Origin: Candidatus Krumholzibacteriota bacterium | GTDB taxonomy: Bacteria; Krumholzibacteriota; Krumholzibacteriia; JAJRXK01 | Assembly: GCA_963806035.1 (NCBI GenBank) | Contig: CAWDWO010000007.1 | Span: forward strand, 36,973 to 100,972 | Reading direction: 5' to 3' | Length of the DNA stretch: 64,000 bases | Shown: one piece after another, positions 7,185 through 41,490 of the stretch | How positions within the stretch are numbered: position 1 is the stretch's first letter | Layout of the letters: each line of letters starts with the position of its first letter | Notes under the pieces: generated by a model | What the model saw: the letters and a program-made list of their open reading frames with translations, nothing else | The model's database searches: none | What the model was told of the DNA's origin: nothing | Position numbers and translations under genes: made by a program

Positions 7185-7656
7185 GATCTTCCCTCTCGCT
7201 CAAGTCGTCCAAGAGTCGCGGAAGCGCGGCTTGCAAATGCTCCTCGATGGCAGCCCAGGTCTCGCGGTAGCGCGCCGGATCACCACCGTAGGGATCGATG
7301 AGATCCCCTCTCTCCGTGAGACCGGAAAATTCGGAGAGAGAGTATACCTTTCCTCGGGCCGAAGGATAGGCACGGAGGATGGCGTCCCGGTGGCTTTTGG
7401 TCATGGTCAAAATCAGATCGCTTTGCCCTACGAGTTCGAGATTCAAGGGACGCGTGCGGTGGCCGCTCAGGTCCGCCCCATGCTCGCGCGCCACCAGCAC
7501 CGCATTGGCCGATGCGGGCTGGCCCGGCGGGGCCTGCAGACCGGCAGAGGAAACCGTGGGTGGGTTTTGGACCTGGGCAAAGAGACTTCGCGCCAGGGCT
7601 GCGGCCATGGGGCTGCGGCAGCTATTGCCGGTACACACGAAGAGAATAGAACTCAT
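7162..7656 (-). CDS. Low-molecular-weight protein tyrosine phosphatase (LMW-PTP/ArsC-like fold)
   Basis: The start [17 protein letters not shown] contains the CX5R P-loop at the N-terminus. 164 aa. Confidence 0.8.
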
Positions 7657-7714
7657 AGTAAAATCGTAAGTTGTGAGAATTTCCGCTGAAGGCTATTCGT
7701 CCCCTGTGGCAAAG

Positions 7715-17134: not shown

Positions 17135-19369
17135 TCAGACGAGCCCCCAGCGCCGTCGGAGCATCCACTCCAGACTGAGCAACAGTAGAAGAGGAGCGAA
17201 GAGCTTGAAGCTCGCCCACAGAGGCGTGCGAGATCGAGTCACTTTGAGCTTGGACTTCAAAGGCAAATTGCGCGCCCACTCGCTCAGCTCAGCCCTCGTG
17301 ACCACGCTTCCACCGGTGGAGCGTGCAATGGACGCGAGCTGCGCGAAGTCTACGCCGGGATGCTGATACTCCACCGAGTAGGGATCCACGGCGAGCGAAC
17401 TCCAGGGAGAAAAAATACGGCCCGAACTCTCCTCCAAGGCGAGTCGAAACTGGTAGTGGCCCGCGGGCAGAGGGGGAATCGCGAGCTGTCTGCCTCCGGG
17501 CGGTCCATTTTGTGCCCGCTGCATGAGGGCGCGACCCAATACCGTGGTGTTCGAATCCGCGCCAGCAGAGGGTTCCTTTCTCCACTCGATCCACAGATCA
17601 CTGCTCTCGTCCGGCTGACGACGAGCATCCAAGACCACCGCCCGCAAGAGTGCGTCCTCGCCACGCGCGACCACGGGTCGCGGAAGGATGAGTTGCAGAC
17701 GCTTTCGGCTGGCGCCCTCGGCCAGGTAGTAGATGAGATTGCCCACCAGGGCCCGGTAAACGTCCTCCCCCTCTCGCTCGCCCAGCCGCCAGAAAGACCA
17801 GCTCCACATGGGAGCCGCCGACCAGCATGCCACCGTTCCCTTGGCGCTGCTCTTCAAGCTGAGCAACGGAGTCGTGCCTTCAGAGTCTTCCGCCTGCAGG
17901 AGAACGTCGGCGTCAGGCTTGGCAACGATGCCGTGAACTGCATCCCACAGGGGAGGCATTTGCTCCAGTCGCTCCAGCGGATCCCCCACCGAAGCGGGAA
18001 AGGCGAAGATCGGGCTCGAGATTCCCGCGGGAAGAAGTCGTACGCGATGCCGCGCGCGCTTCCATCGAGAGGCCGAGCTGAGCTGAACCGGCAAGAGTTC
18101 GCTGGCCTCGCGAGACAGCGAGCTGGGCGGCTGCCCGCGAGCCTCACCGAAGAGCACCCAGAGTCCGGCCCCTTCCCGCACCGAGGCGATCATGCCCGGA
18201 GCCCGCTCGCTCAGTTGCGCAAAATCTTCCAGAGAGAGGATGACCCAGGCGTCGACTCCGGCCGCCGCCGTGGCATCCACGGGCGGGGTCCATGTACTGT
18301 CGCTTCCGGCTTTCTGCCATCGATCCACCGCACGGTAGACGCCTTCGACATCGAAGCGTGGATCCTCGGCGAGACGACGCCGCAGAAAATGAAAATCCCA
18401 ACCGGGTCGCGACTGGACGATCATGATGTGCAGACGGTCCTTGAGAACTTCCGCGCCAATCTCGATCGCGTTGTTGTCCTGGAGCGCTTCGGAAGGAAGT
18501 GGGGTCAATCGCAGCACGCGGCGCAGCATACCCAGGCTGTCAGCCCGTACCACGAAACTCAAAGGGATGCGCCCGCCTCCTCTCGGCCAAGAAAAACTGA
18601 GCGTGTCCGGGCTGGCACCACCCTGCAAGATGGCGCGCGCATGTCCCGCGTTGGCGGATTCCACCACCGCCTCGGCCGTTATTTCGATCTGATCGCCGCG
18701 GTAAGCCACCGTGGGATAGTGGACGCGATCGAGACGTAGATCGCCTGGACCATTGCTGTCACCCACGGCGAGCGTGAACACGGGCAGACTGAGGCCGCGC
18801 AGTGAGGGCAACTCCGGATCCGTGCTCCTGCCGTCACTCAAGAGCAGAATCGCCTGCAGATTGTCCTCCAGGTGGGATTGCGCGGCCGACAAGAGGAGCG
18901 CGGGCAGATTGGTCCCCTCCTGCGAGCCTGCCTGCAGCTCGCGATGCAAACGGCGCGATCCTTCCGCGCTGAAAAGCTGTGGCTTTTCCGGCCGCCCGGA
19001 CAGTTGCCTCTGGGCAAGCTCGGCCAGATCGCGCGCGTCCTGCAGGCGTGTCGAACCGTCGTGGGATTTCAAAGTCATGCTGCCGCTGTCATCCACCAGC
19101 GTGAGCACGCTGGGCGAAAGCCGCTTGCTGTGACGCGAGAAGAGAACCGGCTCGAGAATCAAGAACAGCAGGAGCAGGAGTGCGCTGGCACGCAGAAGGC
19201 GCAGGATCCAGCGGCGGCTCGTGTTGAGCGAGGGCTGGGTGCGATGGTACGCGAGATACGATACGGCGAGTCCGACGATCAAAAGCAGGATGACCAGTGA
19301 CCAGTCGAGGGCGCCCTTGGGCCAGACGCTCAGTTTTGCCAAGGGGAGAGAAAGGGATGAGAGGGTCAC
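17135..19369 (-). CDS. BatA-like N-terminal transmembrane + von Willebrand factor A domain protein
   Basis: 744 aa. Two N-terminal TM helices are followed by a vWA MIDAS motif (LTLVDDSGSM). The long C-terminal extension contains a third hydrophobic segment. Confidence 0.65.
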   Translation of the reverse strand: MTLSSLSLPLAKLSVWPKGALDWSLVILLLIVGLAVSYLAYHRTQPSLNTSRRWILRLLRASALLLLLFLILEPVLFSRHSKRLSPSVLTLVDDSGSMTLKSHDGSTRLQDARDLAELAQRQLSGRPEKPQLFSAEGSRRLHRELQAGSQEGTNLPALLLSAAQSHLEDNLQAILLLSDGRSTDPELPSLRGLSLPVFTLAVGDSNGPGDLRLDRVHYPTVAYRGDQIEITAEAVVESANAGHARAILQGGASPDTLSFSWPRGGGRIPLSFVVRADSLGMLRRVLRLTPLPSEALQDNNAIEIGAEVLKDRLHIMIVQSRPGWDFHFLRRRLAEDPRFDVEGVYRAVDRWQKAGSDSTWTPPVDATAAAGVDAWVILSLEDFAQLSERAPGMIASVREGAGLWVLFGEARGQPPSSLSREASELLPVQLSSASRWKRARHRVRLLPAGISSPIFAFPASVGDPLERLEQMPPLWDAVHGIVAKPDADVLLQAEDSEGTTPLLSLKSSAKGTVACWSAAPMWSWSFWRLGEREGEDVYRALVGNLIYYLAEGASRKRLQLILPRPVVARGEDALLRAVVLDARRQPDESSDLWIEWRKEPSAGADSNTTVLGRALMQRAQNGPPGGRQLAIPPLPAGHYQFRLALEESSGRIFSPWSSLAVDPYSVEYQHPGVDFAQLASIARSTGGSVVTRAELSEWARNLPLKSKLKVTRSRTPLWASFKLFAPLLLLLSLEWMLRRRWGLV

Positions 19370-19517: not shown

Positions 19518-19551
19518 GAAACAAAAGCGCCGGCGGAGTCCGCCGGCGCTC
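19518..19551 (-). terminator. Rho-independent terminator downstream of the STAS gene
   Basis: A perfect 10-bp GC stem (GCGCCGGCGG/CCGCCGGCGC) with a 3-4 nt loop is followed on the minus strand by TTTTGTTTCC. It sits 25 nt after the stop of the 19576..19935 gene. Confidence 0.75.
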
Positions 19552-19575: not shown

Positions 19576-19935
19576 TCAGGTCGTCGCCGATGCGCTCACG
19601 GCCTCTTCGACCGTGGCGAAGGCCTCGAGGATGTTCTGGAATTCCAACAGTTCGAACACTTCGTAGACGTCGGGAACCATGCCAACCAAGCGTAAGTCGC
19701 CGCCGTTTTCGCGGATCTCGCGAATGACGCTGATGAAGATGCCCCAGCCGGCCGAGGAGATGTAGGAGACCCGTGAGAGGTCCACGATGATCTTGTAACG
19801 CTTCGACTGAATCAGGGACTTGATCTCCCTCTCGAATTCCGCCGAGGTGGTCGTGTCGATGTAGCCTGCCACTTCCAGGACCTGCTGATCCGGGCAGGAT
19901 TCGTGCGCCTTCGAAATGACCATGATCCCATCCAT
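19576..19935 (-). CDS. Anti-sigma-factor antagonist (STAS domain, SpoIIAA/RsbV-like)
   Basis: 119 aa. The STAS fold signature is ...LEVAGYIDTTTSAEFEREI.....YKIIVDLSRVSYISSAGWGIF. The conserved phosphorylatable Ser lies in the YISSAG context. Confidence 0.85.
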   Translation of the reverse strand: MDGIMVISKAHESCPDQQVLEVAGYIDTTTSAEFEREIKSLIQSKRYKIIVDLSRVSYISSAGWGIFISVIREIRENGGDLRLVGMVPDVYEVFELLEFQNILEAFATVEEAVSASATT

Positions 19936-19991: not shown

Positions 19992-22527
19992 TTAGTTAGG
20001 TATTTTTCCCGTTCCGGTGTCCACGGGCTCCATTCCCGGCTCCTGCGACACTGGCGGCTGCTCTTCATCCGTGTGCAAGCTTTGGTCCAAGCCATCGCCG
20101 TGATCGGTCTGATTCTCCAAAGGGGCCCCCTTCTGGGGATTCAGCCCGCGGCGCCGCAGATAGAGGCGCCGTTTGGACTCGTTGCTGAGGTCCAGGCGCA
20201 CCAGCTCGTCGTAGACGATCTTGGCATTGGCCTCGTGACCCAGCTCGCAGAGGTGATCGGCCAGGCGTTTGGCACCCAGGCCTGGATCCTTTCGCACCAG
20301 CTCCAGAATCGCCTCGCGCCCTTCGACGGTGAGGCGCCGCATTCCGGACTGCGAGGCCCGGCCCGCGAGGGCCTCCTCTCCCCCGCGTTCTCTCATCCGT
20401 CGCCAGCGGTAGAAGGTGGAAACGGAGGTGCCGTAGCTCTGGCAGGCCTCCTCGATGCTCATCCCCTCGAGTTCCACCATGTCCAGCAAGCGCTGCCGGC
20501 GCTCGATCTCCAGCGAGGCCGGCCGCAACTTCTCCTTCACCGCCACCACCGTGATGTCGTCGTTTTGCGCGTTGCCTCCGGTGAAGGCCGCGATGTCCTC
20601 GTTGAACGCGGCGATGAATTCCTCCGCCGTCCGTCCCGCATTCTTGCGCACACACTCGATGAGGCGCTGCTCGCCGTACTGCTCACGTGCCGCATTCATC
20701 GCTTCGGTCACGCCATCGGTGTAGATGAGAAGCAGATCGTCCTGTTGCAGCTGGACCTTCTCCACTTCGATCGTCTTGGAGAACAGCTCCGGATCAGGCA
20801 GCGAAATCCCCACCGGGAACCCGGCTGGATTCAAGAAGAAGACCTCATCGGTTTCGATGCGATACAAGAGCATCGGATTGTGACCGGCCGAGGAGTAGCT
20901 GATCACGCGATTGCGCGAATCGAGGATGATGTAGAACAGGGTGATGAACATCCCGCGGCGCATGTCCTCGGTAATGAAAGTGTTGACGCGGCTCATCACG
21001 TCGCTGGCCGAGTGATTTCCCCTCGCCTCCATGCGCATGGCGGTGCGGATCATCGTCATCACCAGACTGCCCGGGATTCCCTTGCCCGAGACGTCCGCGA
21101 CCACGATTCCCACCGTGTCCTCGTCCACCGCGAAGAAGTCGTAATAGTCGCCGCCGACCTCCGCTGCCGCGCGGTACATCGCTGCGATCTCGTAACCGGA
21201 GAGATCCGGCATCGCGGTCGGCAACAGGGTGTGTTGAATCTCCCGCGCGAGCTGCATTTCCTTCTGGAGTCGTTCCTGCTCGACCAAATGCGATTGTGCG
21301 TGACGGAACTTGGATGCAATTTCGTTGAACGCGGCCGCGATCGTGGAAATCTCCTCGGGACCGTGCACCTCGATGTCCTCCTCGAGCACGCCGTCCCCGA
21401 TGGCCAGCACGCCCTCGGTGAGCTGCTGGATGGGGCGTACGAAGAGATTTACCATCACGAGTATGAGCAGAATTCCCACCACCAGGATGATCAGCCCGAT
21501 TCCCATGGCGTGCAAAAGCGCCGCGCGATAGTGCTGCTCCAGGTCCGAGGTCTTCAGTCCCAGCACCACTCGACCCAATTCGACCCTCTTCCCGGATGGC
21601 CCTTCGATGTCCACCGGATAATTCAGCTGCAACACTCGTCCCGAGTCGAATTGGATGCGCGTCCATTCTCCCGCGTTCTTTCCATGATCGATGAGCCGGC
21701 CTGGCTCGGGATGCCAAGAATTGAAGAGATTGTCCAGGACGCTGTCGGCCCAAATGCTGCCGTCTTTCCCGTGCACTACTCGAGCGAAGGCGATGGTGGA
21801 ATCGTGACGCGCAAGTTCGCTGACGCCCTGTTGCAGAAGCGTCCGTTCCACCGAATAGGGATCGCTGCTCGCGAGCACGCTCCTGGACTGCACCGCCAGA
21901 TCACGCGCGAGCGCCTCAATCCGACTGAGGTCTTGATCGAAGATGGCCTGCCGCTGTCGAAAGTGCACGACCGAGAGGGCGAGGATCACCAGGAGTGCCA
22001 GCCCGAAGGAGGCGCGCAGGGTGAAGCGCATTCTCAAACTGCGGTGCAGAGCGGAGAACTGAATACCTGGAATCCAGCGATCGATGGACGGACGCCGATC
22101 CATGCACATCCGGAGTTCGTTGCTTCCGTCGACGGTCGTGTAGTCCACCTCGTCCATGATCCGATTGATGAGGTAGATTCCGAGCCCGCCGCGCTTCCCG
22201 ATCGCCACGTAGTGGTCCAGGTCCGGGACTGCAACCGAGCCAAAGTCGAAGGACTCACCGGTATCCTTCAGGATGATCTCCACCTGACCGGCGAAGTACC
22301 TTACCCGGATGGTGATCTCGCCACCCTGATTGTGATAGGAATGCTGGATGATGTTCGTACAGGCTTCGTCCACCGCGAGCTTGAAATTGGCGGTGTCCGC
22401 CGGATCGAATCCGGCCTGCATGCAGATGCGTGCCACGAAATCGCGTACCTGAGCCAGGTGGCTCTCGCGGGCCTCGATGACGAGCTCCGCCCTCTTGATC
22501 CGGCCGCCGATCACTTGGGTCCGTCCT
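19992..22527 (-). CDS. Membrane sensor fusing an RsbW-like HATPase serine kinase, periplasmic domain, HAMP, a PP2C (SpoIIE/RsbU-like) phosphatase and a C-terminal transposase-type HTH
   Basis: N-terminal GHKL anti-sigma kinase motifs (VDEACTNIIQHSY...GGLGIYLI). TM1 ASFGLALLVILALSVV, a ~170 aa loop, then TM2 AMGIGLIILVVGILLILVMV. A HAMP linker precedes a PP2C domain (GGDYYDFF..VADVSGKGIPGSL...YTDGVTEA). The C-terminal MSIEEACQSYGTSVSTFYRWRRMRERGGEEAL matches the IS630/IS481-OrfA type HTH. I set the start at the GTG near 22527; the ORF-track start at 22814 overlaps the upstream gene and looks like read-through. Confidence 0.75.
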
Positions 22528-24526
22528 TCTCGCCGGCGCCCTGCTCGAGGCGGTCGATCCGTGCCTTGGCCTCTGCAATGTTGTTCTGAGCGCCCTGGTT
22601 TCCGGGATCGATCTTCAAAATCTGCTCCCACTGTCGAATCGCTTCTTCGTAGTTGCCATCGGTGAAGGAACGGAGGCCCGCCAGGTAGTACTGGCGCACC
22701 TGCTTCTCCTCGCTCGGGCTGAGGCTGGCCGGTCCCGACCTGCGGTGGGCGATCTGGTCGAGAAGCGCCAAGGCTTGCGCATGCTTGGGCTCCCGCTTCA
22801 AAACCTCGCGGCAAAGCGCTTCAGCCTGGTCCAGCTCGCCTTTCGAGAACGCCTCGAGCGCTTCGGTGAAGCGGCGCTCCTGTGCCAGCTCCCCGCGGGC
22901 GCGTTCGGCGTCGGCCTGCGCTTGCTCGCTCTCATGGCGAGCGGCATCCAACTCCGCCTTCCAGCGCTTCAGGGCCGCGGCGGGAGCAGGATTATCCGGG
23001 TCGAGAGAGGCTACGACGCTCCAGGCATTCAATGCGGATTCCCAGTCGCCTGCCTCCTCCGCCGCGGTGGCTCGTGAGGATGCGCTTGCCATCGCGCTGG
23101 CCTCGAGGTCCTCCACCTGCTGACGGAGACGCGGCAGCATGGGATAGTCCGCAGCGAGATCGCCCAGAGCGTTCAATTCCGCTCGCGCTTTCAGCGCATC
23201 GTGTTGGTCCAGCGCGGCCCGGAGTTGATTTTCGGTGTCTTCGATCCGGAGCGTGCGCCGCTGCTCGTCGGCCTTTTGCTGCGTGACGCGCTTTTCCAGC
23301 TGCTGCAGGCTTGCCAGCTGGGTCCTCAGAGAATCATCGGCCACACCAAGACTGCGGGCCCGCGCCAGGCTCTTCTGCGCGTCCTGGAGCGAATCCCGGC
23401 TGAGCGCATCCTGGAAATCCTGCACCGCACTCGTGATTTGGGCCTTGCGCCAGTTCTCCACGGCTTCCATGCGCGCCTGCATCAACTCTTTGGCCCGCAG
23501 TTCGTCGCGGTGACGGCGCCGATCCTTCATGTCCTGGCCGAAGTACCAGGAGAGGCTCAAGAACTGGGATGATCCCAATTCTCCGCCCGAACGAAACGCA
23601 TAGTCCACGGAGTAGTCCCGCCAGCGTCCACCCAGACCGGCGTTGAAATGGCCATCGTCGTAGCTGAGACGCAGGGTGTAGAGTCCTTGGTACTCGGCTT
23701 CCGCGCCCAGTCCGAGACGCTTGGCGGCGTACTGTGGTTTGTCGTAGACCGCGGCCAACTGGAGAGCCGTGTTCTCGCTGAATTCATGCCGTTTGCTCAG
23801 GGCAAAGCGCTGCGCATAGGGCAGCGTGTCTTCGCGCTCGATGAGCCTGAAGCTCGGTGCGATCAGATTCTGGTATACAAAGGAGAGCCGGACTCCCCCG
23901 AGACGCGGAGGGACCCAGGCCAGGCCCAAGTCCATGCCACCGCTGGTGCTCTTCTCTTCCAGATCCAGGCTGTGGATCTTGGCGCTCGTGCCCAAATCGA
24001 GCCTGCCGCCGAGGTACGGCAGCCTTCCCCCATATCCGTAACTCAAGAAAAGCTGTGTCTCTCCGTAGCTGATGCTTCCGGTGGGTCGGCTGGTACTGTC
24101 GTAGGTTTCGATGTCCCCCAGTTTGAGCCGCAGGAAGCCGATGCCGAAGCCTCCGGCGTTCAGAGTAGGATAGGCGAGTCCCAAGTAGCCGTAGGAGGCT
24201 CCGCCATCGAGACCGTAAAGACGGTTGTAGCTGAAGGTGAGCTGTGATCCTCGAGCATGGGGCAAGAGTGCCGGGTTCCAGAAGCAGGCGCTGGCATCAT
24301 CGGCCAGGCCCACCATCGTCGATCCCAAACCCACTCCGCGCGCGGTAGGACCGAGCTTGAAAATAGACTCGGTGCCTCCACCGTCGTCCGCGGCTCGGGC
24401 CAATCCCGCAGGGAAGAAGCACATGAGCAGAAGCAGCAGAAGGGCAGAAGCCGCGGCTCCGCGCGCGTTCTCACAGCGCGAAGTGTGCCTCGAGGTGGGC
24501 ACGAAGTTCGGATAGCCGCGCCTCAT
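22511..24526 (-). CDS. PorV-like (UPF0164/T9SS shuttle-type) outer-membrane beta-barrel with C-terminal coiled-coil/TPR extension
   Basis: Signal peptide ALLLLLLMCFFPAGLARA. The N-terminal motif GARGVGLGSTMVGLADDASACFWNPALL matches the PorV family consensus G.GGA.VA..DDASA..WNPAGL. The ~340 aa barrel region is Gly/Tyr-rich. The C-terminal ~330 aa is charged coiled-coil plus TPR-like repeats (YYLAGLRSFTDGNYEEAIRQWEQILKIDPGN). The start was chosen to give an ATGA overlap with the adhesin stop at 24523-24526. Confidence 0.6.
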   Translation of the reverse strand: MRRGYPNFVPTSRHTSRCENARGAAASALLLLLLMCFFPAGLARAADDGGGTESIFKLGPTARGVGLGSTMVGLADDASACFWNPALLPHARGSQLTFSYNRLYGLDGGASYGYLGLAYPTLNAGGFGIGFLRLKLGDIETYDSTSRPTGSISYGETQLFLSYGYGGRLPYLGGRLDLGTSAKIHSLDLEEKSTSGGMDLGLAWVPPRLGGVRLSFVYQNLIAPSFRLIEREDTLPYAQRFALSKRHEFSENTALQLAAVYDKPQYAAKRLGLGAEAEYQGLYTLRLSYDDGHFNAGLGGRWRDYSVDYAFRSGGELGSSQFLSLSWYFGQDMKDRRRHRDELRAKELMQARMEAVENWRKAQITSAVQDFQDALSRDSLQDAQKSLARARSLGVADDSLRTQLASLQQLEKRVTQQKADEQRRTLRIEDTENQLRAALDQHDALKARAELNALGDLAADYPMLPRLRQQVEDLEASAMASASSRATAAEEAGDWESALNAWSVVASLDPDNPAPAAALKRWKAELDAARHESEQAQADAERARGELAQERRFTEALEAFSKGELDQAEALCREVLKREPKHAQALALLDQIAHRRSGPASLSPSEEKQVRQYYLAGLRSFTDGNYEEAIRQWEQILKIDPGNQGAQNNIAEAKARIDRLEQGAGEKDGPK

Positions 24527-27500
24527 CGTGTCACCGCGATTCTGAAGTAGATCTCCCCGCCGGCCGCACGCACACGACAGATGTAGACCCCGTTCCGCAC
24601 CTCTTGACCGAGACCGTTGCGCCCGTCCCACAGCACATCACCGTCATGAATTCCAGGCTCCGCTTGCGAACTCCCGGCGGCAAAGCTCCACTGGCGAACT
24701 CGCTTTCCCAAAAGATCGAAAATCTCGATCTCGACCGGACCGCTCTGAGGGAGTGAATACGAGAGAGTGGCGGGCTCTCGACTCGGAACGAAGGGATTGG
24801 GATAGCTGTGAGCATCGAACTCGGAAGACGCCTTCGCCGTGACACTCGGACCGGCCAGGATGAGCGAGTGGCCGCCCCCCTCTTCGTCGAGTAAGGCATA
24901 GCTGAGCGCAAATCCCCCGGAGTCCAGGATGGAAGCGCTGCCGCCGTCCAACGCAAAACGGAAGGAGACATAGTCCGCATCGGCCTTGGCCTGCACCCCG
25001 ACGCGGAACGCGGCCGAGCTGTCCGAATCGATGACGAGGTCCACGGGAACGATCACGGGATTACCATTGACCGCCGCGCTCCAGTTCTGAGTGCCGTCGG
25101 TACGCCGCACCTGAATCGTCTGCAAGAAGCTCGACGGATTGGCGAAGGGCTGTCCCGCGTCGTCGACCAGGTTCAGCGCGAGCTGGGTGAAGTGCACCGC
25201 TTCGGGGTGACCGTTGCTGATGTGAACGGCAAAGCGCTCGTAGATGCGGTCGCTACCGATCAGCGGGCCGGTGTCGCTCAAGTCGCTGATTTCAAGCCGC
25301 AGTGGATCGGCCAGAATCGATAGCGCGACCGAACTCTCGGCCGTCGCTTCGCCGGCCGGCAATCCGCTGTTCTCGTCTAGGGGGATCTGCTCGGCGGTCA
25401 GAGTGATCTTCTGTACGCCCAGGTCCAAGCTGGTCGGACCCTGTAATCTCCACACGACCTCGTCGCTCGGATCGACGAGATCGACGCTGGCCGTCTTGCC
25501 ATCGAGAATGCTGAAGCCGGAGGGAACCGAAAGGTGCAGCCGTGCTGGCGGTAGGGTTTGCGCACTGCCACTGAGTACAAAATTTCCATGAAGTTCGACG
25601 ACCGCTCCCGGCGGCAGTTCTCCCCGATCGCGGGCACTGTTGGGCTCCAGAATCGTCAGTCGAGGAACGGCATGGGCGGCTTCCACGACCTGAAGATTCA
25701 CGCTCGCGCAGGTATCCGCCAACACGCTGCTGCTCTGCACGTCAGTGGCGTGTGCCACCGTGCGCAGCAGCAGGCCTGCCGCCGGGGTATTCGGGCAGAG
25801 AACCTGCCAGTTCACCGTGGTCTGTCCATCCGTCAGCATCTGACGGGCATTCCCTCCCACCAGCGCCAACTGCGGCGGCAAGAGCAGCTCGAGAGATCGC
25901 TGTTGCAAATTCGCTGGCCCGTCCACTTCTCCCTGCAGGGTGAAGGTCTGTCCCGTACTCAGAACGGTATCCTGAGCGCCCTGGGGCGAAATGATGCTCA
26001 AGCTGCAAGTATCGAAGGCGGTCCCGCCGAAAACCTCGAGCTGCAAAGTGCGGCTGGAGGCGCTGGTGAGCGGCCGCGCATCGGGATCGTTGGCGTCCAG
26101 GTCCACGCGCGAGAGCGCCGCCACCAGGTCGACGGTCTGTACCGTCGAAGGGGCCACGAGTCGAATCGTCGCTTCGGGATTGGAAGGATCGAGCTGAACC
26201 GGAAGAGTGCTTTGGGAGTCCAGAGTGAAACCCTGCAGACTGTTGAAATCGACCTCCACCGGCAACCAGGACCCGGATTGCTGTACGGAAGCATCCTGAT
26301 CCACCGCGAAACGCACGGAAAAAATCTGGCCTGGCGATACGGACATGGCGAGCGGATCGACGCTGTCCACGAGTTCTGCGCGGAAGCTGAGGGAGACTGG
26401 CCGCTGAACCTGAAGATTCGCCAGATCGTCCAGCGGACTCTGGGGCACGATTTCCTGCTGAGTAGTGGAGGACAATGCGCGCACGATCAAAGCCCGCAAG
26501 GACTCCGGTCCTGGAGTGGTCGTGATGCTCGTGTCGAAGTACAGGGTATCGATCTCGCTCGACTCCAGGCGCGGAACCGAAATGTCCGCCGCGCTCGAAG
26601 CGGGCGTCGCGCTTCCAGCCAAACGCACGGTGAGCGAATCGATGGCCTCGCCGGCGTTGTTGCCCACGACGACCCTCACCCCGATGTGCTGGCGGGTGTT
26701 GACTTGACTGAGAGGGGCACTCGGGTTCAGGGCAGTGGTCGAAAGAATGCGCAATCCGGCCGGATCGAAGAGGGTGAGCGTACCGTTCGGCAGAGGCAGA
26801 TCCGAGTCGAAGGGCAAACCGTTCTGTGTGCCTCGCACCCGCAGGTAACCCTGCGGGGTGCCCAAAATTAGATCCGAGGGCAAGGCCAGAGGGGAGAAGG
26901 CGAGCTGGGTGGTGCCCGTGGGCACGCTCGCCGGCGAAAGCGGATCGAGCACCGCCCCGATGCGCGCGCCCTGAGGCTCGCCGAAGTCAAGACGTGTCGT
27001 GAGGGGATCGAGTACGAGCTGTGCCTCTCCCTGGTTCGTCAGCGAGAGTTTGAACCCGACCGTCGATCCACGCAGGGCCGCGGCTGGATCGAGAGGCGTG
27101 GCAGCGAGGACCAGATCAGCCGGCGTTTCGGTGCTGATCGCGTCGACCTGAATGAGATCCGCGGAGAAGGGGAAGCTGTTCTCCGTGCCTGCCAGGTGCA
27201 GCTGTAGGTCCTGGCTCTGGCTCCCCAGGGCCGCATCCACCGTGGTGGGACCGAAGCTCAGCTCGGCTTCCTGGCCGGGTGCGAGAGCCAGAGAGCTGCT
27301 CAAGGCGCCGCTCCAGAGCCCGCCTCCAAAGCTCGCGAAGGAACTGGCCGCGTTCAGGGAAACCGTGGCGCCACCGTTGTTCTTGACCCGTGCCTTCAAG
27401 AGTAGATTGGCCCCGTGGTGGATTCGAGACGGGGTCACGCTTTTGTCGACCAGCTCGAGCTGTGATGCGCTGCTCACGCTGAGCGGCGTGGCCGAGGAGT

Positions 27501-30500
27501 CCGCAGGTGCCGTGAACTCGGCCCCTGCTACCGTCCCCGTGACGCGCGCCACGAAGCGGTAGTTCCCCGGCGGGGTGGCACTCCCCACTCTGACTCGCGA
27601 AGAGAGATCACGCTGACCACCGGCCGCGACTGCTCCCAAGGGGTCCTGATCGACCAGGGTGAAATCCGCCGCCGGTGAGGACTGCAATGCCAGCTGCGAG
27701 ATTCCGACGGAACCCGCGCCGAGGTTTTCCACCGTGACGCGAACGTTGAGAGTATCCCCCGGTACCGCCTGCGTCTCGTGACTCACCGAGCGAATGGCAA
27801 GGCCGCTGACCAGAAACGAGCCCTGCGGAAGCACGATGAAGCTCGAAACTGCTTGCCCGTGCGTGTCCTGCCCCGCCAGTTGCAGCGTGGGCCGGAACGA
27901 GCCCAGAGCGAAACTCGCGGGGAGGGTCGCCGTGCTGAAATTGAGGACTTGGCTCGACGAGGCCGGCACCACGGTATCGCTGGGGAGCGAGGCGGCGAGG
28001 ACCCCTCCCTGTCCATCCTCGATCTTCAGTTGCGAGAGTCCAGCGTCCAGGATTGCGTCGACGCCCCCGGTATTCTGTAGCGTGATGCTGAAGTTTAGAT
28101 TCTGCCCCGGCACCGCGGCCGCGGGAGTGAGCGCGCCATCGAGCGCCAGTGAGGCAGGCGACACGAAGATCGCGTCCGCGCTGCCCATGGCGGCCGCGCT
28201 CGCGAAGGAGACGGTGACCGTTCCGGCAGTGAGAGGAGACGCCAGCCGCAGGCCCACCATTCCCGATCCGTCGCTCAGCCTTTGAATCCCGCTGCGCTGG
28301 GGATCGAGATCGTCGGAGATGATCGCTCCTCCGTTTGCGCTCACGTCCACTGAGCTTCCCGCCGCCACCACGTTTCCGAATGCGTCGCGAATCGGTCCCG
28401 CGCTCAGCCGCGTCACCGAGACCCCATTGGCCGTGTTCTCGCTCGGATCCACGATGGGCACCGGAATCGTTCCCGAGGGCGAAGCGGGAACCACCAAGAG
28501 ATTGTTCAGACTGCCCCCAACCGCGGGCAGGGCGGCCAGGCTCACGTCCAGGGTCAAGGGACCGGCCTGCTGGGCGCTGAGATCCACCGTGGCTTTCCCC
28601 GCCACCAGCGAAGCCGGAGAAGGTGTCACGCTCAGCACGGATGGACTCGAGTTGAACGCCAGCTCGCCCGCCAGGTCGACCTCGTTGCCCGCGGAGTCCC
28701 TGGCGACGATCGTGAGAGAGTTGGGAGTTCCCGCGGTGAGAAGCGTGTCGCTGATCGAAAGCTCGAGATGGTCCGCGGAGCCTGGCAGAGCCTCTACCGT
28801 CCAGCGAACGGTCTCCAGCGAGCCGGGCGTGCCGTCCAGGATGGAGGCGCCGACCCGGTGCTCTCCGCTGCTCGTGGAAAGATGGAGTACAAAGGACAGC
28901 TCTCCGTTGGCATCGGTCGAAGCGAGACCATCATCCGTGGGTACGCTGGGGTCTTCCAGACTCGCTCCCGAAGGAGCGCTCAAGAGACTCAGACGCACGG
29001 GAACCCCACTGACCGCATTGCCATAGCTGTCGGCGACTCGCGCGAGCAGCGTGACCGTCGTTCCGGCCGGCGCGCTCTGCAGCGTGTCACCCACGGCGCT
29101 GAGCCGGAAGGCGGCGCCCGCCGACACTTCGATCAAAGGGCTCTGGGCGTTGATTGAAGGCTGCGATTTCAGGCTTGCCGTGACGGAAAACTGCTCCACC
29201 AGGGTGTCCCGCGCACTGGCCGAGAGAAGGCCCGCGTTCAGCGCGCCTTCAGAGGGAGTCAGGACGATTCCGGTTCCGGTGGAACTCAGCTCGACGGAGT
29301 CCGCTGCCGCCAGCACCCGGTTGCCCGCTGCATCGAGGGCGGTGATCGTCAGGGGAAGAGCCTGACCCGCTATCACGCTGGTCTGCGAGGGAAGCACGGC
29401 GAGCGAGGCAATGGGTCCGGCCACGGTATTCACCACGAAAAGGACCGTCTCCCGCGCGACGGGACTGCCATCCAGAATTCCCACTCGCAGGCGCAGGGTC
29501 TGCACCGTCGAGTCGGTGAGTACAGTGAAAGTCGCATGGCCGTTGGCGTCGCTGCTTGCGGGGCCGGCCTGGAGTGTGCCTCCCTCCAGCTGCAGGACAT
29601 TCAGCGTCTGGTTGCCAACTGAGTTGCCCAAGGCATCCAGCACCTGCACCCCGAGGTCCACGCTCGAACCCGCGGTCACGCCGGACAGGGTATCCGCGCC
29701 CGTGCTCACCAGTTCGTAGGCACTGCCCGAGCCCACACTCAGAAGCGGACCCAGATAGCCCTTGCCCTTGGCGCTGAGACGAATGTGATAGCTTCCCGCG
29801 GTGTCGATGCGCTGCAGGGAAGTCGAAAAGCTTCCCCCGATGAGCTGACCCTCAGAGACGTTGAGCGGAAGCGGGACCACCACGGTGCTGTCCGCACCGT
29901 CGACCAGGTCGAAGGAAAAGCTGTCTGATGCGGCGCTGGCCAAATTTCCAAAGGCGTCGTACGCCGTTGCACTCAAGGAGAAGGGGGCTCCCGCGGTCGC
30001 GGTCGCGGGATAGGCGAGCTGATACTCAGCCACCATCGTGCCGGCCAAGATTTGCAGGCTCCCGCTATCTCCGTCCAAGAGCGCCGCCGAATCGTCCGCG
30101 CTGAAGGCGTGCGTACCGGCCAAACTTCCCTGGTAGTAGACCGTGGCCTGTCCGCTGACCGCGAGGTTCAGCGTATCGAGATACGGTCCGCCGCTCTGCG
30201 CCGAGAAAACCAGACCGGTCGCGGGATCTGCGTGCACGATGACGGTGGCCGAAGAGCTCGAACTCAGATTGGCGAAGCTATCCACCAGCGACAGCCCGAA
30301 GCTGCCTTCGACTCCAGCCTCGACCGCGCCCGCGGGCGGGGAGAGCCGAATCGCGCTCGCGTTCCCCACTACCGAGCTATAGACGAGATCGTTGACCGCG
30401 CCCGAGGAGACTTGACTCGAGCTAGCATCCAGAACGTCCTGAAGTCCGGCCGTGGAGGGCGCGCGGTACATCACGTGGATCAGCCCGTTCCCATCGGTCA

Positions 30501-33075
30501 AGCCGCGCTGCGTGGCCAGACCGAGAGAATCCGTCTCTCCCACTCCGGAGAGAATCCCGTCCAGCAAATCGCTGGAAAACAAGGTCACCTCGGCGCCCGC
30601 TACTGGATTTCCATAGGAGTCGCTCGCCAAAGCCGCGACGAGTTCCGTGCCACCCACCACGAGGTTCCTCGGCCCGTTGGGTTGAAGGACGAGACTGCTC
30701 ATCGGACCCGCAGTGGCGATGGCGTTGAAGTTCACCGAAGGCGCGAAGGAAGATTCCGCTGACAGACTCTGGAGACCCGCCACCGTGCCCAACTCCCAGA
30801 GAGCACAGCTCGCGTATCCGAGCGAATCGCTCAGGGCCGTGTTCTGGTCGCCGGGAGTGAGAGGGTCCGTGTCCACACGTCCACCGTCGGCCAAAATGAA
30901 CTGCACGGTGGCTCCGCTCACTGGATTGCCAAAGGCATCCAGCGCGCGCGTCCGCAGAGCTTGCGCGACGGCAGTCCCCACGGTGGCGCTCTGTCCGTCT
31001 CCCGCGGTCAGCTGCAGATCGCTTGCGGGCGCTGCGAGGAAGCTCAGATCCGCGCTGCCGGATGCCGATCCGTCGCTGAGGATGACTGTCAGATCCTCCG
31101 CCAGCGTGTTGGTGAGTTGCAGCTCGACTCTTCCCGAATCGGCCGCTGCGAAGCTGTAGTCCGCCTCGCCGCCGGGCAGAGGAGTCAGGCTTCCCGCGCC
31201 GCTGCTGGCCCAGTTCAGATTGCTCCCGTCGCCCGAACTCGAACTCGAAAGGTGCACCGTGCCGCCGTAGTTACCCACGCGATTTCCCGTGGCATCCAAC
31301 GCGTCCGCGCGAATTGCGAGGGCCGTTCCCGCGCTTCCGATGGCGCCTGCCGGCAGGCTCAACGCAAAATGGTCCAGTGGCCCGGCTACGAATTCCAGAT
31401 TCAGTGGGGGACCTACCGGCAAGCCGTCGAGGCTCGCCTGTGCTGTTCCCGCGCCGGGGGTGGTGGAGCGCAAGCTCGCATGAAACTGTCCCGAGGCATC
31501 GGTGCTCGCGTCCAGTTTTTCGAGCTGCCACGCGGCCGGGAGCGTGAAACCGATGCGACTCGAGTCGATGTTCGCTACGGCATTGCCGAAAGCATCCTCC
31601 ATACGCAGAAGCAAGCCGATGGTGTCGACTCCGTCGGCGACCGCGGAGGCATCGCCGGAGAGCGTGGTCGAGGAAGAATCGACGGAAGAGGCCGTGAACT
31701 CGACGAGGGGTTGGGAGCTGAGCGTCACGCCCGCGGCCGTTACGCTCACGGGCCTGACGCCAGCGCTCGTCGAACGAAGCCTTGCCGCGAATTTGCCGTC
31801 AGCCGCGCTCGATCCACTCAGCTTTTCCACTGCCACCGCACTGGAGCTGATCACGATCTGCGCGCTGTCGACGCCAGCCACTGCATTGTCGAAGGCATCG
31901 CGCAGGGTTGTCTGCAGGGTCGTGAAATCAGAGCCGTCGGCGAGCGCCGGCCCGGCAAGGACAGCCGTGGAATGATCGGGGTCCACCGGTCCCGCGCTGA
32001 AGTCGAGATCGAGAGTGTCGCTCAGCGCCACTCCGCCCACTGAAACCGCGAGACGGCGGGCCGATGCGACAGTGGTGCGCAGAAGCGTCGCGAAGGACCC
32101 ATCCAGGGCCGAGTTCGCCGCCTGCTTTTCGACGCTGAGCCCATCCCCCAATACCGTGAAAACGATGGAGGAGGAATCGACTTGCGAAACCGCGGTTCCG
32201 CCGCTGTCGCGAAGAACGAGATCCACTTGGATAGCGTCGACACCGTCGGCCACGGCAGACGTGCCGCCACTCAGACTGGATTGTACCGGGTCGACTGCTC
32301 GTGGTGTGAAGATCACGGTGGGGTGAGTGTCGAGCGTCGAGCCGTCCACGACCGCATCCAGGCTCCAAGAGCCCGCCAGAAGCGTTCTGACTCGCAGGGG
32401 AAAGCTGCCGTCGGCCGCGCTGGCCGCTGTCGGCTTCTCGACCGAATAAGCGGGAGCTGACAGTGCAACCGAAATGCGCGCGCTGTCCACCCCGGCAATC
32501 GTGTTCCCGAACGCGTCGCGCAGAATCAGAGTGACCGAGCTGAAGGCGCTCCCGTCGGCCACTACCGGAGAAGTCGCACTCACGGAGCTCTGCTGAGAAT
32601 CGACTGCGGCGGGAATCAGGGTGATGGTGGTTTGATCGAAACCCAAGTCCGGAGCCGCGGAAGATCCGTCGACCACGGTGAGCCCGACCGGCAGCGAGTT
32701 GAGGTGGGTGGCGCGAAACAGGAGGTCCACTCCGGAGGAATCGGCGGCAATGCTCGCTGAACTCACCGCGGGACCCCCCACGAAGCGGTGATAGCTTCCG
32801 GAGGAGTTGTCGCTGAAGAGGTCGATCACCTGTGAGGCGGACACCGGCGAGGGATCACCGGTACTGTCCACGCTGAGGACCCGAATGGGCAGGTACTCCC
32901 CCGCGGTCGCCGTGTCCGAGGAGGTCTGGATCATCAGCGCGGATGGGGGTTGCGCGGCAAGGGAGGCGCGGGGCAGAAGCACACAGAAGCACACCGTGCT
33001 GAGGAGCAGGGAAACTCGTCTCAACGGTGCGAGACGATCGTGAATGCGCGTGAGTGGTCCCGGCATGGTGTTCAT
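24523..33075 (-). CDS. Giant (2850 aa) secreted adhesin-like protein with tandem Big_1-type Ig-like repeats, CARDB-like repeats and a C-terminal T9SS sorting domain
   Basis: Signal peptide ...LLLSTVCFCVLLPRASLAA. At least four ~100-aa repeats carry V(A)DG.D...L.LRDAFGN.V..VDS..I (invasin/intimin Big_1-like). Multiple (V/L).(V/L).N.G.a segments are CARDB-like. The C-terminal YPNPFVPSREPATLSYSLPQSGPVEIEIFDLLGKRV...GVYICRV is the T9SS CTD signature. Confidence 0.8.
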   Translation of the reverse strand: MNTMPGPLTRIHDRLAPLRRVSLLLSTVCFCVLLPRASLAAQPPSALMIQTSSDTATAGEYLPIRVLSVDSTGDPSPVSASQVIDLFSDNSSGSYHRFVGGPAVSSASIAADSSGVDLLFRATHLNSLPVGLTVVDGSSAAPDLGFDQTTITLIPAAVDSQQSSVSATSPVVADGSAFSSVTLILRDAFGNTIAGVDSARISVALSAPAYSVEKPTAASAADGSFPLRVRTLLAGSWSLDAVVDGSTLDTHPTVIFTPRAVDPVQSSLSGGTSAVADGVDAIQVDLVLRDSGGTAVSQVDSSSIVFTVLGDGLSVEKQAANSALDGSFATLLRTTVASARRLAVSVGGVALSDTLDLDFSAGPVDPDHSTAVLAGPALADGSDFTTLQTTLRDAFDNAVAGVDSAQIVISSSAVAVEKLSGSSAADGKFAARLRSTSAGVRPVSVTAAGVTLSSQPLVEFTASSVDSSSTTLSGDASAVADGVDTIGLLLRMEDAFGNAVANIDSSRIGFTLPAAWQLEKLDASTDASGQFHASLRSTTPGAGTAQASLDGLPVGPPLNLEFVAGPLDHFALSLPAGAIGSAGTALAIRADALDATGNRVGNYGGTVHLSSSSSGDGSNLNWASSGAGSLTPLPGGEADYSFAAADSGRVELQLTNTLAEDLTVILSDGSASGSADLSFLAAPASDLQLTAGDGQSATVGTAVAQALRTRALDAFGNPVSGATVQFILADGGRVDTDPLTPGDQNTALSDSLGYASCALWELGTVAGLQSLSAESSFAPSVNFNAIATAGPMSSLVLQPNGPRNLVVGGTELVAALASDSYGNPVAGAEVTLFSSDLLDGILSGVGETDSLGLATQRGLTDGNGLIHVMYRAPSTAGLQDVLDASSSQVSSGAVNDLVYSSVVGNASAIRLSPPAGAVEAGVEGSFGLSLVDSFANLSSSSSATVIVHADPATGLVFSAQSGGPYLDTLNLAVSGQATVYYQGSLAGTHAFSADDSAALLDGDSGSLQILAGTMVAEYQLAYPATATAGAPFSLSATAYDAFGNLASAASDSFSFDLVDGADSTVVVPLPLNVSEGQLIGGSFSTSLQRIDTAGSYHIRLSAKGKGYLGPLLSVGSGSAYELVSTGADTLSGVTAGSSVDLGVQVLDALGNSVGNQTLNVLQLEGGTLQAGPASSDANGHATFTVLTDSTVQTLRLRVGILDGSPVARETVLFVVNTVAGPIASLAVLPSQTSVIAGQALPLTITALDAAGNRVLAAADSVELSSTGTGIVLTPSEGALNAGLLSASARDTLVEQFSVTASLKSQPSINAQSPLIEVSAGAAFRLSAVGDTLQSAPAGTTVTLLARVADSYGNAVSGVPVRLSLLSAPSGASLEDPSVPTDDGLASTDANGELSFVLHLSTSSGEHRVGASILDGTPGSLETVRWTVEALPGSADHLELSISDTLLTAGTPNSLTIVARDSAGNEVDLAGELAFNSSPSVLSVTPSPASLVAGKATVDLSAQQAGPLTLDVSLAALPAVGGSLNNLLVVPASPSGTIPVPIVDPSENTANGVSVTRLSAGPIRDAFGNVVAAGSSVDVSANGGAIISDDLDPQRSGIQRLSDGSGMVGLRLASPLTAGTVTVSFASAAAMGSADAIFVSPASLALDGALTPAAAVPGQNLNFSITLQNTGGVDAILDAGLSQLKIEDGQGGVLAASLPSDTVVPASSSQVLNFSTATLPASFALGSFRPTLQLAGQDTHGQAVSSFIVLPQGSFLVSGLAIRSVSHETQAVPGDTLNVRVTVENLGAGSVGISQLALQSSPAADFTLVDQDPLGAVAAGGQRDLSSRVRVGSATPPGNYRFVARVTGTVAGAEFTAPADSSATPLSVSSASQLELVDKSVTPSRIHHGANLLLKARVKNNGGATVSLNAASSFASFGGGLWSGALSSSLALAPGQEAELSFGPTTVDAALGSQSQDLQLHLAGTENSFPFSADLIQVDAISTETPADLVLAATPLDPAAALRGSTVGFKLSLTNQGEAQLVLDPLTTRLDFGEPQGARIGAVLDPLSPASVPTGTTQLAFSPLALPSDLILGTPQGYLRVRGTQNGLPFDSDLPLPNGTLTLFDPAGLRILSTTALNPSAPLSQVNTRQHIGVRVVVGNNAGEAIDSLTVRLAGSATPASSAADISVPRLESSEIDTLYFDTSITTTPGPESLRALIVRALSSTTQQEIVPQSPLDDLANLQVQRPVSLSFRAELVDSVDPLAMSVSPGQIFSVRFAVDQDASVQQSGSWLPVEVDFNSLQGFTLDSQSTLPVQLDPSNPEATIRLVAPSTVQTVDLVAALSRVDLDANDPDARPLTSASSRTLQLEVFGGTAFDTCSLSIISPQGAQDTVLSTGQTFTLQGEVDGPANLQQRSLELLLPPQLALVGGNARQMLTDGQTTVNWQVLCPNTPAAGLLLRTVAHATDVQSSSVLADTCASVNLQVVEAAHAVPRLTILEPNSARDRGELPPGAVVELHGNFVLSGSAQTLPPARLHLSVPSGFSILDGKTASVDLVDPSDEVVWRLQGPTSLDLGVQKITLTAEQIPLDENSGLPAGEATAESSVALSILADPLRLEISDLSDTGPLIGSDRIYERFAVHISNGHPEAVHFTQLALNLVDDAGQPFANPSSFLQTIQVRRTDGTQNWSAAVNGNPVIVPVDLVIDSDSSAAFRVGVQAKADADYVSFRFALDGGSASILDSGGFALSYALLDEEGGGHSLILAGPSVTAKASSEFDAHSYPNPFVPSREPATLSYSLPQSGPVEIEIFDLLGKRVRQWSFAAGSSQAEPGIHDGDVLWDGRNGLGQEVRNGVYICRVRAAGGEIYFRIAVTR
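31395..32625 (-). repeat. Tandem intragenic repeats (~300 nt units encoding Big_1-like Ig domains) within the giant adhesin gene
   Basis: Four consecutive protein repeats recur, with a shared DNA core such as gtcgaca/ctccgtcggc(c/g)ac(g/c)gc roughly every 300 nt. They are diverged and the coordinates are approximate. Confidence 0.5.
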
Positions 33076-33234: not shown

Positions 33235-33753
33235 TCAGGATGCGTCCTGGTTGCCCAGCTCGTCCAGTTTGCGCATCCCCTCGAGCATCAGATAGTCGAG
33301 GCTGACGTCGAGCAGAATGTCCTCGTTTTCCGGGTAAATCTGCGAGTAGAAGGCGAAGTTGCCCTCCTCGATCGTCACCAGCTGAAAGACGATTTCCTCG
33401 ATCTGACTGCGCACCGCTTCCTTGAGTTGCTGGTCGGTGATCGAGCCCACCTCGACCAGGATCGTGCCTATCCTCTTCCCGCCGGCCAGACCCGCCTTCA
33501 TCTTCGCGCCCTCGAGTTGGGAGCGCTCCAGGAGCCCGCTGCGCACCAGGTAATCTCCCAGGCGCTCGGTCCGGGCGTCGGTGCGCGCGTAGATCAGTCG
33601 CCCCTGGTGAAAATAGACCCGAGCCCGTTGCTCACAGCCGTGAAGCACCAGTTTACCCGTGGCCTGCGCCAGGTGCAGGAGCTGAAAGATGTTCGCCACT
33701 CCGAAGAGTTCGATTCGGCCCCGCAAATCCAAGTTTCTCTCCCCCGTGAACAC
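33235..33753 (-). CDS. DUF4388 domain protein
   Basis: 172 aa. The G.L....(V/I).....Q.L.....TG.L.........G.IYF..G motif (FTGERNLDLRGRIELFGVANIFQLLHLAQATGKLVL...RVYFHQGRLIYA) is typical of DUF4388 (PatA-N-like). Confidence 0.7.
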   Translation of the reverse strand: MFTGERNLDLRGRIELFGVANIFQLLHLAQATGKLVLHGCEQRARVYFHQGRLIYARTDARTERLGDYLVRSGLLERSQLEGAKMKAGLAGGKRIGTILVEVGSITDQQLKEAVRSQIEEIVFQLVTIEEGNFAFYSQIYPENEDILLDVSLDYLMLEGMRKLDELGNQDAS

Positions 33754-39048: not shown

Positions 39049-39064
39049 TCCATCTTCCTCGGGT

Positions 39065-41404: not shown

Positions 41405-41490
41405 TGCACCCCTCCCGCACTGGGCAGGCAAGATCGTTTCTCGGGGGTCGGGATTCGTTTTCGCGAGATGGCGAGGCCTCCGCTCGACGC

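Follow-up and report, generated by a model that had tools for sequence, protein, structure and literature searches.

Among the described type IX secretion systems (T9SS), those closest to the locus reported here are SprB-SprF of Flavobacterium johnsoniae and PG1035-PorP-PorE of Porphyromonas gingivalis, in which the gene for a giant repeat adhesin adjoins that for its own 14-strand barrel of the FadL family. Substrates of this kind, with a type-B C-terminal sorting domain (CTD), stay attached to a PorP/SprF-like carrier of their own (PMC9143113), which is thought to remain as their anchor and which has periplasmic links, PorP to the TPR-containing PorE and SprF to GldK (PMC9143113, PMC12635249); in the latter case, SprF's C-terminal periplasmic tail connects to GldK, a periplasmic structure (PMC12635249). 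Type-A CTDs are bound by PorV through its extracellular loops, and carriers take over the CTD inside the SprA pore and exit together with it (PMC10994853), dedicated carriers remaining bound to their substrates (PMC9143113, PMC10994853). Here, we describe a locus from a 64-kb stretch of contig CAWDWO010000007.1 (hereafter, the window) of a Candidatus Krumholzibacteriota bacterium, in which the gene for a giant adhesin-like protein with a type-A-like CTD is followed by genes for a PorV/PorQ-family barrel with a C-terminal TPR-like tail and for an inner-membrane Cache/HAMP transducer. We propose, with a probability of about 0.5, that the barrel is a dedicated carrier and anchor, the periplasmic tail of which connects the adhesin with a signalling module that spans the envelope.

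The locus resembles the type-B systems in that a giant adhesin gene adjoins the gene of its own barrel, but differs from them in several respects: the CTD is type-A-like (TIGR04183), the barrel belongs to the PorV/PorQ rather than to the PorP/SprF family, a fused 330-aa TPR-like domain stands in place of a short Cys-X-Cys tail or a separate lipoprotein, and the conserved neighbour is a Cache/HAMP transducer. With PorV and PorQ of Bacteroidota, the latter being the partner of PorZ in the attachment complex, the barrel shares the superfamily, the fold and the N-terminal motif. However, PorV and PorQ measure ~340-400 aa and lack a C-terminal domain, and the substrates of PorV are many, whereas the barrel described here has 671 aa and stands one-to-one with its cargo.

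Association of cargo and barrel extends far beyond this genome. Open reading frames (ORFs) were called mechanically in 29 tail-bearing loci outside Elusimicrobia, the window counted, and in 28 of these a CTD ORF of 1000-3300 aa (or one cut by the contig end) finishes at the start of the barrel gene, the exception being a locus (L022) with a divergent giant CTD gene. The junctions are mostly ATGA/GTGA or TAATG overlaps, that between adhesin and carrier amounting to 1 or 4 nt in most homologous loci, and the C-termini of the upstream proteins match TIGR04183 in 19 of 24 cases and the CTD part of the PorU model in 24/24. In the window, the minus strand reads gtgacacgATGAggcgc at the junction (also shown as acacgATGAggc), such that the carrier ATG (24526-24524) overlaps the adhesin TGA (24525-24523); the carrier ORF as called spans 22511..24631(-), its 671 aa being counted from this ATG. 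Close relatives share the order ppdK, DUF4388/PATAN, giant Big_1 protein, tailed barrel, ~840-aa HATPase_c_2/HAMP/SpoIIE/HTH protein and STAS, and their barrel gene overlaps each neighbour by 4 nt. In distant relatives (27-35% identity), the giant upstream protein has other repeats (CLIPPER/DUF11, DUF7483) and still ends at the start codon of the barrel, and the downstream gene still encodes a HAMP protein; overall, the adjacency is kept down to 23-30% identity over several phyla while the repeats of the adhesin change, as would be expected if cargo and carrier were dedicated to each other. Because both the pairing and the overlap recur in diverged homologues, they are not a product of chance. 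A sequence-only reading of this DNA had noted the ATGA overlap, which the minus strand bears out and homologues repeat, and had considered the two genes to be a dedicated cargo/shuttle pair, to be sought in related genomes. The pairing was indeed found there, as described above, but the description proved incomplete, the pair being in reality part of at least a trio with the Cache-like/HAMP transducer.

The cargo is a repeat protein, with Pfam matches to Big_1 in 10 stretches (1.8e-51), to Invasin_D3 in 7 (3e-37) and, for a CARDB/DUF11-like region, to CARDB (1.4e-8). Its signal peptide, as judged by eye, comprises an n-region with Arg, the hydrophobic VSLLLSTVCFCVLL and then SLA|AQ. The C-terminus scores 24.8 bits with TIGR04183 (Por_Secre_tail) when the whole protein is searched and 29.8 bits when the last 150 aa are (cutoff 23), and no type-B CTD was matched in the Pfam/NCBIfam scans; it can be aligned to the C-terminal ends of 23 proteins encoded upstream in homologous loci, with the consensus YPNPF...IYTL.GE.V...WDGRN..G..V.NGVY...KIAVVK. 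Two further CTD proteins are encoded in the window, one at 15421-17058(-) with a Lamin-tail domain (LTD) and a FlgD_ig/CHU_C-like C-terminus, the other at 36625-39126(-) with a BNR/Sortilin-type beta-propeller and a C-terminus matching the PorZ/PorU CTD. Neither adjoins a PorV-like gene. All three cargos of the window have CTDs of one type-A-like layout, with no special subclass evident for the carrier-linked adhesin. In the 73%-identical relative L001, the adhesin is called as two genes (1334-9277, 2647 aa, and 9282-10004, 240 aa, with the CTD), which indicates, immediately before the CTD, a frameshift, a stop or an error in the assembly.

The barrel matches the PorV/PorQ family model NF033709 with 90.7 bits over aa 56-327 (cutoff 90), stays below the equivalog models (PorV NF033710, 18.8 versus 250; PorQ NF033711, 50.8 versus 220; PorV2, 44.8 versus 325) and scores 14 bits with the PorP/SprF model TIGR03519 (cutoff 90.55, E=0.025); a tail-less paralogue from a metagenome-assembled genome (MAG) of Eisenbacteria reaches 185 bits with NF033709. 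By these scores, the barrel is to be regarded not as an orthologue of PorV or PorQ but as a member of a large subfamily that has diverged within the broad PorV/PorQ family. It carries the conserved N-terminal motif GGT.S.F..G..AR..GLG.A....DDASA..WNPA, as do PorV/PorQ. An AlphaFold2 (AF2) model of the carrier, built on 13 homologues (mean pLDDT 82), has a short helical N-terminal segment followed by 14 beta-strands at aa 94-329. When this model was compared to the PDB with Foldseek, F. johnsoniae PorV came out on top (8gl6_F, E=8.7e-8, and 6h3i_F; target TM-score 0.60-0.65), with FadL/TodX ranking below it, and the profile of the tailed-barrel family matched PorV (6h3i_F) at E=1.3e-8, from sequence alone. 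A split inverse autotransporter of the intimin/invasin-like kind was also considered and rejected, the barrel being of the 14-strand PorV/FadL type and the cargo ending in a T9SS CTD.

Tailed barrels form a widespread, large and unannotated family that, judging from the database matches, is not peculiar to this genome. A word-index search with the carrier returned 13 proteins with 27-87% identity, of 647-701 aa save for one 476-aa fragment, and an exhaustive profile search of 1.84 billion cluster representatives yielded 2675 proteins at E<=1e-30, TPR-only matches included. Among the best 150 cluster representatives, >130 are 600-700 aa long, with a single match spanning profile positions ~20-653. 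None of the family members has an informative name, the sources giving 'TPR repeat protein' or nothing. The nearest genome matches are Candidatus Krumholzibacteriia MAGs (55% and 44%), and full-length relatives occur in MAGs labelled Ignavibacteria, Latescibacterota, Zixibacteria, Eisenbacteria, Endomicrobiales and Elusimicrobia.

The length of the tail is conserved among family members. Hidden Markov models (HMMs) of TPRs match it above their cutoffs (TPR_2, 42.1 versus 27; TPR_1, 33.4 versus 27.8; TPR_11, 30 versus 26.8), the matches being confined to ~aa 555-655 and the remainder being TPR-like by its AF2 helix pattern only, that is, helix-turn-helix hairpins with some helices of 44 residues and no long coiled coil. 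By the general topology of outer-membrane proteins, the even number of strands (14) and the beta-signal-like LSLSWYFG that closes the last strand, the final FG of which is nearly conserved across the family alignment, would place the tail in the periplasm and not on the surface. Several claims of the sequence-only reading can be judged from these results. It had recognized a Big_1/CARDB-repeat protein of 2850 aa with a T9SS CTD at its end and a PorV-like barrel, and these identifications hold, the last with a marginal family score and with the Foldseek and profile matches to PorV. Of the ~330 aa of coiled coil and TPRs that it saw beyond the barrel, the TPRs are borne out, whereas the coiled coil is not specifically supported; it was right that canonical PorV has no such tail (the 6h3i_F chain has 402 aa), and of the periplasmic or surface scaffold that it envisaged, the periplasmic version is favoured by the predicted topology and the surface version is not.

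An HMM of the Cache-like periplasmic domain detected the ORF directly following the barrel gene in 29/29 of the tail-bearing loci outside Elusimicrobia, whereas no Cache-like/HAMP sensor lies within +/-10 kb in any other fetched locus, among them ~25 tail-less PorV-like loci and the other loci of the Elusimicrobia type, bar L047, where a sensor-like ORF lies ~2.4 kb downstream of a 605-aa Elusimicrobia barrel. This distribution was established with local phmmer, hmmsearch and hhalign on fetched loci; a word-index search with the fragment covering the transmembrane (TM), Cache and HAMP parts of the sensor gave a single match. The Cache/HAMP input module is thus a companion of the tail. The sensors fall into four output types, namely kinase/PP2C/helix-turn-helix (HTH) with or without fused STAS, sCache-HAMP-HD-GYP, sCache-HAMP-PP2C and sCache-HAMP-HisKA-HATPase, and, since the cytoplasmic outputs vary, it is the periplasmic/HAMP input part that is the conserved partner. 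The periplasm is the only compartment common to this part and the tail.

Taken together, we picture the system as follows. The adhesin would cross the inner membrane by Sec and be directed by its type-A-like CTD to a T9SS-type export across the outer membrane. There, as the gene pairing, family membership and the analogy with the T9SS carriers described above suggest, the CTD would be received by its own 14-strand barrel and not by a general PorV; that the barrel is the private carrier and anchor of the adhesin we consider probable, and it would probably hold the adhesin on the surface, as SprF does with SprB and PorQ with PorZ. The TPR-like tail may then contact the Cache-like domain of the sensor, a step suggested by strict co-occurrence and a shared compartment, and by analogy with PorP-PorE (PMC9143113) and with SprF, whose periplasmic C-tail is functional (PMC12635249); to this step we give even odds. 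In the cytoplasm, the kinase and the PP2C phosphatase would act on the STAS protein and, perhaps together with the HTH domain, produce a partner-switching or transcriptional output set by the state of the adhesin-carrier complex (exported, loaded or engaged). Alternatively, the signal might run inside-out, with cytoplasmic signals controlling the retention of the adhesin.

An unlikely reading that nonetheless deserves attention holds that the barrel is a dedicated carrier and anchor, that its tail serves as a mechanical link to a periplasmic T9SS structure (a hub or track, or an SprE/PorW-like scaffold) or to peptidoglycan, as a fused equivalent of the PorP-PorE or SprF C-tail-GldK link, and that the sensor only regulates expression of the operon. 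Such links have precedents, given that PorP binds the TPR/OmpA protein PorE (PMC9143113), a disulfide bond joins the C-tail of SprF to GldK (PMC12635249) and a bridge between the translocon and the ring is formed by the TPR-rich PorW/SprE (PMC8754138, PMC10994853), and the tail is itself a TPR-like scaffold. However, this reading leaves unexplained both why the tail co-occurs in every locus with one periplasmic sensor domain while the outputs change and why the sensor is absent beside tail-less paralogues; moreover, the tail shows no conserved cysteine motif in the family alignment and no peptidoglycan-binding domain in Pfam.

Pairs of CTD proteins and PorV-like barrels are not confined to the tailed family. 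Among 80 loci (L007-L086) that are genome-contig matches of the barrel family, the CTD HMM found a CTD ORF ending just upstream, on the same strand, of a PorV-like gene, tailed or not, in 52. The share is 13/18 in Elusimicrobia/Endomicrobiales, 3/3 in Calditrichota, 2/2 in KSB1 and 7/9 in Ignavibacteria, with further pairs in Eisenbacteria and Glassbacteria loci, as compared to 0/4 in Bacteroidota sensu stricto/Cytophagia and 0/1 in Chlorobi; from these counts, one-to-one cargo/carrier gene pairs look like the rule outside Bacteroidota. Elusimicrobia/Endomicrobiales have a tailed subfamily of their own, of ~530-575 aa (L030, L032, L034 and L037; also L028, L031, L038 and L070), in which a CTD-only ORF of 130-160 aa lies directly upstream (L032, 9435-9917; L034, 9536-9934; L037, 1340-1774) and a FliG_M+FliG_C+TPR protein of ~600-720 aa followed by a protein of 1600-1850 aa lies downstream. 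The latter were examined as SprA-like translocons and rejected, Pfam showing a C-terminal TPR only; giant CTD proteins (2300-3200 aa) are encoded near these loci. The idea of a porU-porV operon was likewise discarded, for the ~950-1080-aa ORFs before tail-less barrels and the ~1000-aa ORFs before some tailed ones are not PorU sortases: by NCBIfam they are TonB-dependent-receptor-like, MXAN_6640 metalloprotease, choice-of-anchor R or of no family, and NF033707 (PorU) matches just the CTD in them. In Chlorobi and Bacteroidetes MAGs (L058, 7107-9977; L086, 7018-9882), tail-less PorV-like genes directly follow TonB-dependent-receptor-like ORFs of ~955 aa, and in L043 (7146-9968), a PorV-like gene follows an MXAN_6640-type HExxH metalloprotease that bears the CTD.

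These pairs bear on a further reading, which we regard as improbable, whereby a CTD and a PorV-like barrel would constitute a self-contained two-partner export and anchoring pair, independent of the T9SS core, to which the tail adds trans-envelope signalling. It draws on the CTD genes directly preceding barrels in 52/80 loci, including those of Elusimicrobia/Endomicrobiales, given that Elusimicrobia lie outside the Fibrobacteres-Chlorobi-Bacteroidetes (FCB) group and that T9SS genes are stated to be absent from them (PMC11285876), and on the lack of a T9SS core gene in the window. Yet no plugged 14-strand barrel of the FadL type is known to be able to translocate a folded repeat protein of 2850 aa, the T9SS has the CTD as its canonical signal, and T9SS core genes are believed to exist in other FCB phyla, although outside Bacteroidota the system is only suspected in them (PMC11285876). 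A bolder, joint claim would be that CTD proteins and adjacent PorV-like barrels are one-to-one pairs across non-Bacteroidota FCB phyla and Elusimicrobia, and that the tailed pair with its transducer is a trans-envelope device that reports to the cytoplasm whether the adhesin is exported, loaded or attached, or controls its retention from inside, in some phyla perhaps with no canonical T9SS core; as a whole, we consider it doubtful.

That the tail is a periplasmic chaperone or holdase, which keeps the adhesin export-competent and delivers it to the translocon, appears quite improbable. TPR domains do serve as secretion chaperones, the tail has a weak match to the SycD/LcrH class (E=0.0017), and such a role would fit the translational coupling to a very large cargo, but the cargos that come with this same tail have unrelated passenger domains or, in Elusimicrobia, are CTD-only proteins of 130-160 aa, and a chaperone gives no reason for the obligate Cache-HAMP neighbour. 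Finally, it is hardly credible that the barrel is an ordinary FadL-family channel feeding a small molecule to the Cache sensor, with the adhesin adjacent by accident: FadL/TodX transporters are the next-best structural matches and small ligands are usual for Cache domains, but PorV outscores FadL in both sequence and fold searches and a CTD cargo adjoins the barrel in 28/29 loci, across phyla and with start/stop overlaps.

Several observations weigh against the proposal of a dedicated carrier coupled to a transducer. To our knowledge, no experiment has provided a precedent for a carrier dedicated to a type-A-like CTD, the type-A substrates of Bacteroidota using one general PorV. The family assignment is marginal, with the NF033709 score 0.7 bit over its cutoff and the equivalog models failing; PorV/PorQ-family barrels also adjoin unrelated genes, such as the TonB-dependent-receptor-like ones, and, therefore, family membership alone is no proof of a carrier role. 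No core T9SS gene (sprA/sov, porK/L/M/N or porU) is present among the scanned ORFs of the 64-kb window, and we found no report in the literature of a T9SS in Krumholzibacteriota. The contact between tail and sensor is proposed from gene context and a shared compartment, and a regulator gene may simply adjoin its target operon. The tail, furthermore, might be too short to span the periplasm.

The transducer of the window belongs, by its composition, with the modules of the RsbU/RsbW/RsbV type, having a HATPase_c_2 kinase, a PP2C/SpoIIE phosphatase and a STAS substrate; the partner-switching set is complete in the window, RsbW kinase, PP2C and STAS domains all being detected. Unlike in the Rsb modules, a single membrane protein unites kinase and phosphatase, placed around a periplasmic Cache-like domain and HAMP, and carries an HTH at its C-terminus, the gene is coupled to that of an outer-membrane carrier, and there is no adjacent sigma factor gene. 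The periplasmic domain of the window sensor has no direct Pfam match; alignment of its subfamily with the sCache_3_2-type subfamily by hhalign showed the two to be homologous, with a probability of 97.5% (E=6.9e-12, 137 columns). The STAS protein keeps Ser-Ser at the position of the SpoIIAA/RsbV phospho-serine motif (YISSAGWG) and is the presumed substrate of the sensor kinase/phosphatase. Its gene has the same position in L001, L002 and L006 and is fused to the sensor in L004; the ORFs downstream of the barrel in L004, L009, L012 and L036 (~1470-1510 aa) consist of a sensor fused to several STAS domains, and in L004 genes for a ParA/MinD-like ATPase and a TPR protein and two further STAS genes follow, forming an expanded partner-switching cluster. 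The HTH is transposase-like (HTH_23/28/32, with weak IS481/IS630 N-terminal matches), but, because it is conserved in 13/25 homologous downstream proteins, it is a genuine domain and not the remnant of an insertion sequence. For a partner-switching protein, it would be unusual to have an output that binds DNA while tethered to the membrane.

In its logic, the proposed module is also similar to the Lap system of Pseudomonas fluorescens (LapA/LapE/LapG/LapD), where an outer-membrane protein retains a giant repeat adhesin and an inner-membrane HAMP transducer, acting through a periplasmic interaction, governs how the adhesin is kept on the surface. Some of the homologous loci described here carry an output of the cyclic di-GMP type (HD-GYP). 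The two differ, however, in that Lap depends on an unrelated secretion system (type I) and unrelated proteins and uses a periplasmic protease, none being present here. We found no description in the literature of tailed PorV-like proteins, of a T9SS in Elusimicrobia or of a T9SS linked to partner switching.

The operon reads, in order, adhesin, carrier barrel, RsbW-kinase/Cache/HAMP/PP2C/HTH sensor, STAS and terminator (Table 1), and the best explanation for the trio is that of a co-transcribed, translationally coupled envelope module of a bacterium with a Krumholzibacteriia-like lineage. The 4-nt overlap between carrier and sensor genes is common to L001, L002 and many other loci, and the terminator-like hairpin, which lies 25 nt past the STAS stop, likely marks the end of the operon. 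The gene for a DUF4388/PATAN protein, between ppdK and the adhesin gene, recurs at its position in L001-L003 and is missing in distant loci; perhaps the unit starts with it, if only in close relatives. PATAN domains are found in regulators of motility and development and, by analogy, this protein may be a further regulator of the unit. The surrounding region is a housekeeping stretch of 62% G+C, with nearly all genes on the minus strand, including ppdK, glyQS, recO, mgtE, aspS, argS, tatC, glyA and purD. Five further ORFs encode proteins of 296-809 aa without a Pfam/NCBIfam match (39065-41494(-), 41491-43725(-), 17135-19369(-), 11410-12999(-) and 14666-15556(-)); the first two share a 4-nt overlap, and several of the five have syntenic counterparts in L001/L002.

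Table 1. Features of the adhesin-carrier-transducer locus (positions in the window; residues of the protein concerned)
Feature	Position	Strand	Residues or size	Basis or remark
DUF4388/PATAN (PatA_N) protein	33235..33753	-	172 aa	PF14332, 102 bits; between ppdK and the adhesin gene
Giant adhesin-like cargo	24523..33075	-	2850 aa	ORF call; ATG start
Adhesin, Sec signal peptide	32956-33075	-	~aa 1-40	Read from translation
Adhesin, type-A-like T9SS CTD	24535..24804	-	aa 2758-2847 of 2850	TIGR04183
ATGA overlap, adhesin stop/carrier start	24523..24526	-		Sequence reading
PorV/PorQ-family barrel with helical/TPR tail	22511..24526	-	671 aa	Signal peptide ~aa 1-45
Carrier, barrel domain (N-terminal helical plug segment and 14 beta-strands)	23537..24361	-	aa 56-330	
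Carrier, all-helical TPR-like tail	22532..23530	-	aa 333-665	AF2, pLDDT ~85-90
GTGA overlap, carrier stop (TGA)/sensor GTG start	22511..22514	-		
Inner-membrane transducer (sensor)	19992..22514	-	840 aa	
Sensor, RsbW-type Ser kinase			aa 13-137	Pfam/NCBIfam; HATPase_c_2, 99 bits
Sensor, TM1 and TM2			~aa 165-185; 336-358	Read from translation
Sensor, Cache-like periplasmic domain	21510-21959	-	aa 186-335	
Sensor, HAMP			aa 354-400	Pfam/NCBIfam
Sensor, PP2C/SpoIIE phosphatase			aa 464-660	SpoIIE, 167 bits
Sensor, homeodomain-like HTH			aa 668-760	Pfam/NCBIfam
Single-domain STAS protein	19576..19935	-	119 aa	PF01740, 75 bits
Terminator-like hairpin	19525..19551	-	12-bp stem	10 G-C pairs; T-rich tail

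Current models of the T9SS derive almost wholly from Bacteroidota, where type-A substrates share a general PorV and only type-B substrates have private carriers. The locus described here, like those related to it, points to private carriers of the PorV family as a common arrangement for type-A-like CTDs among uncultured FCB phyla and Elusimicrobia, and to one large subfamily of such carriers that has gained a periplasmic TPR domain, genetically inseparable from a Cache/HAMP transducer. Should the link between tail and sensor be physical, this would be the first T9SS carrier wired to signal transduction, and the cell would have a means, with both membranes in between, to sense a giant adhesin or to control it. 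The recurrence of the trio in several uncultured phyla suggests a hitherto undescribed way to secrete, anchor and monitor very large adhesins.

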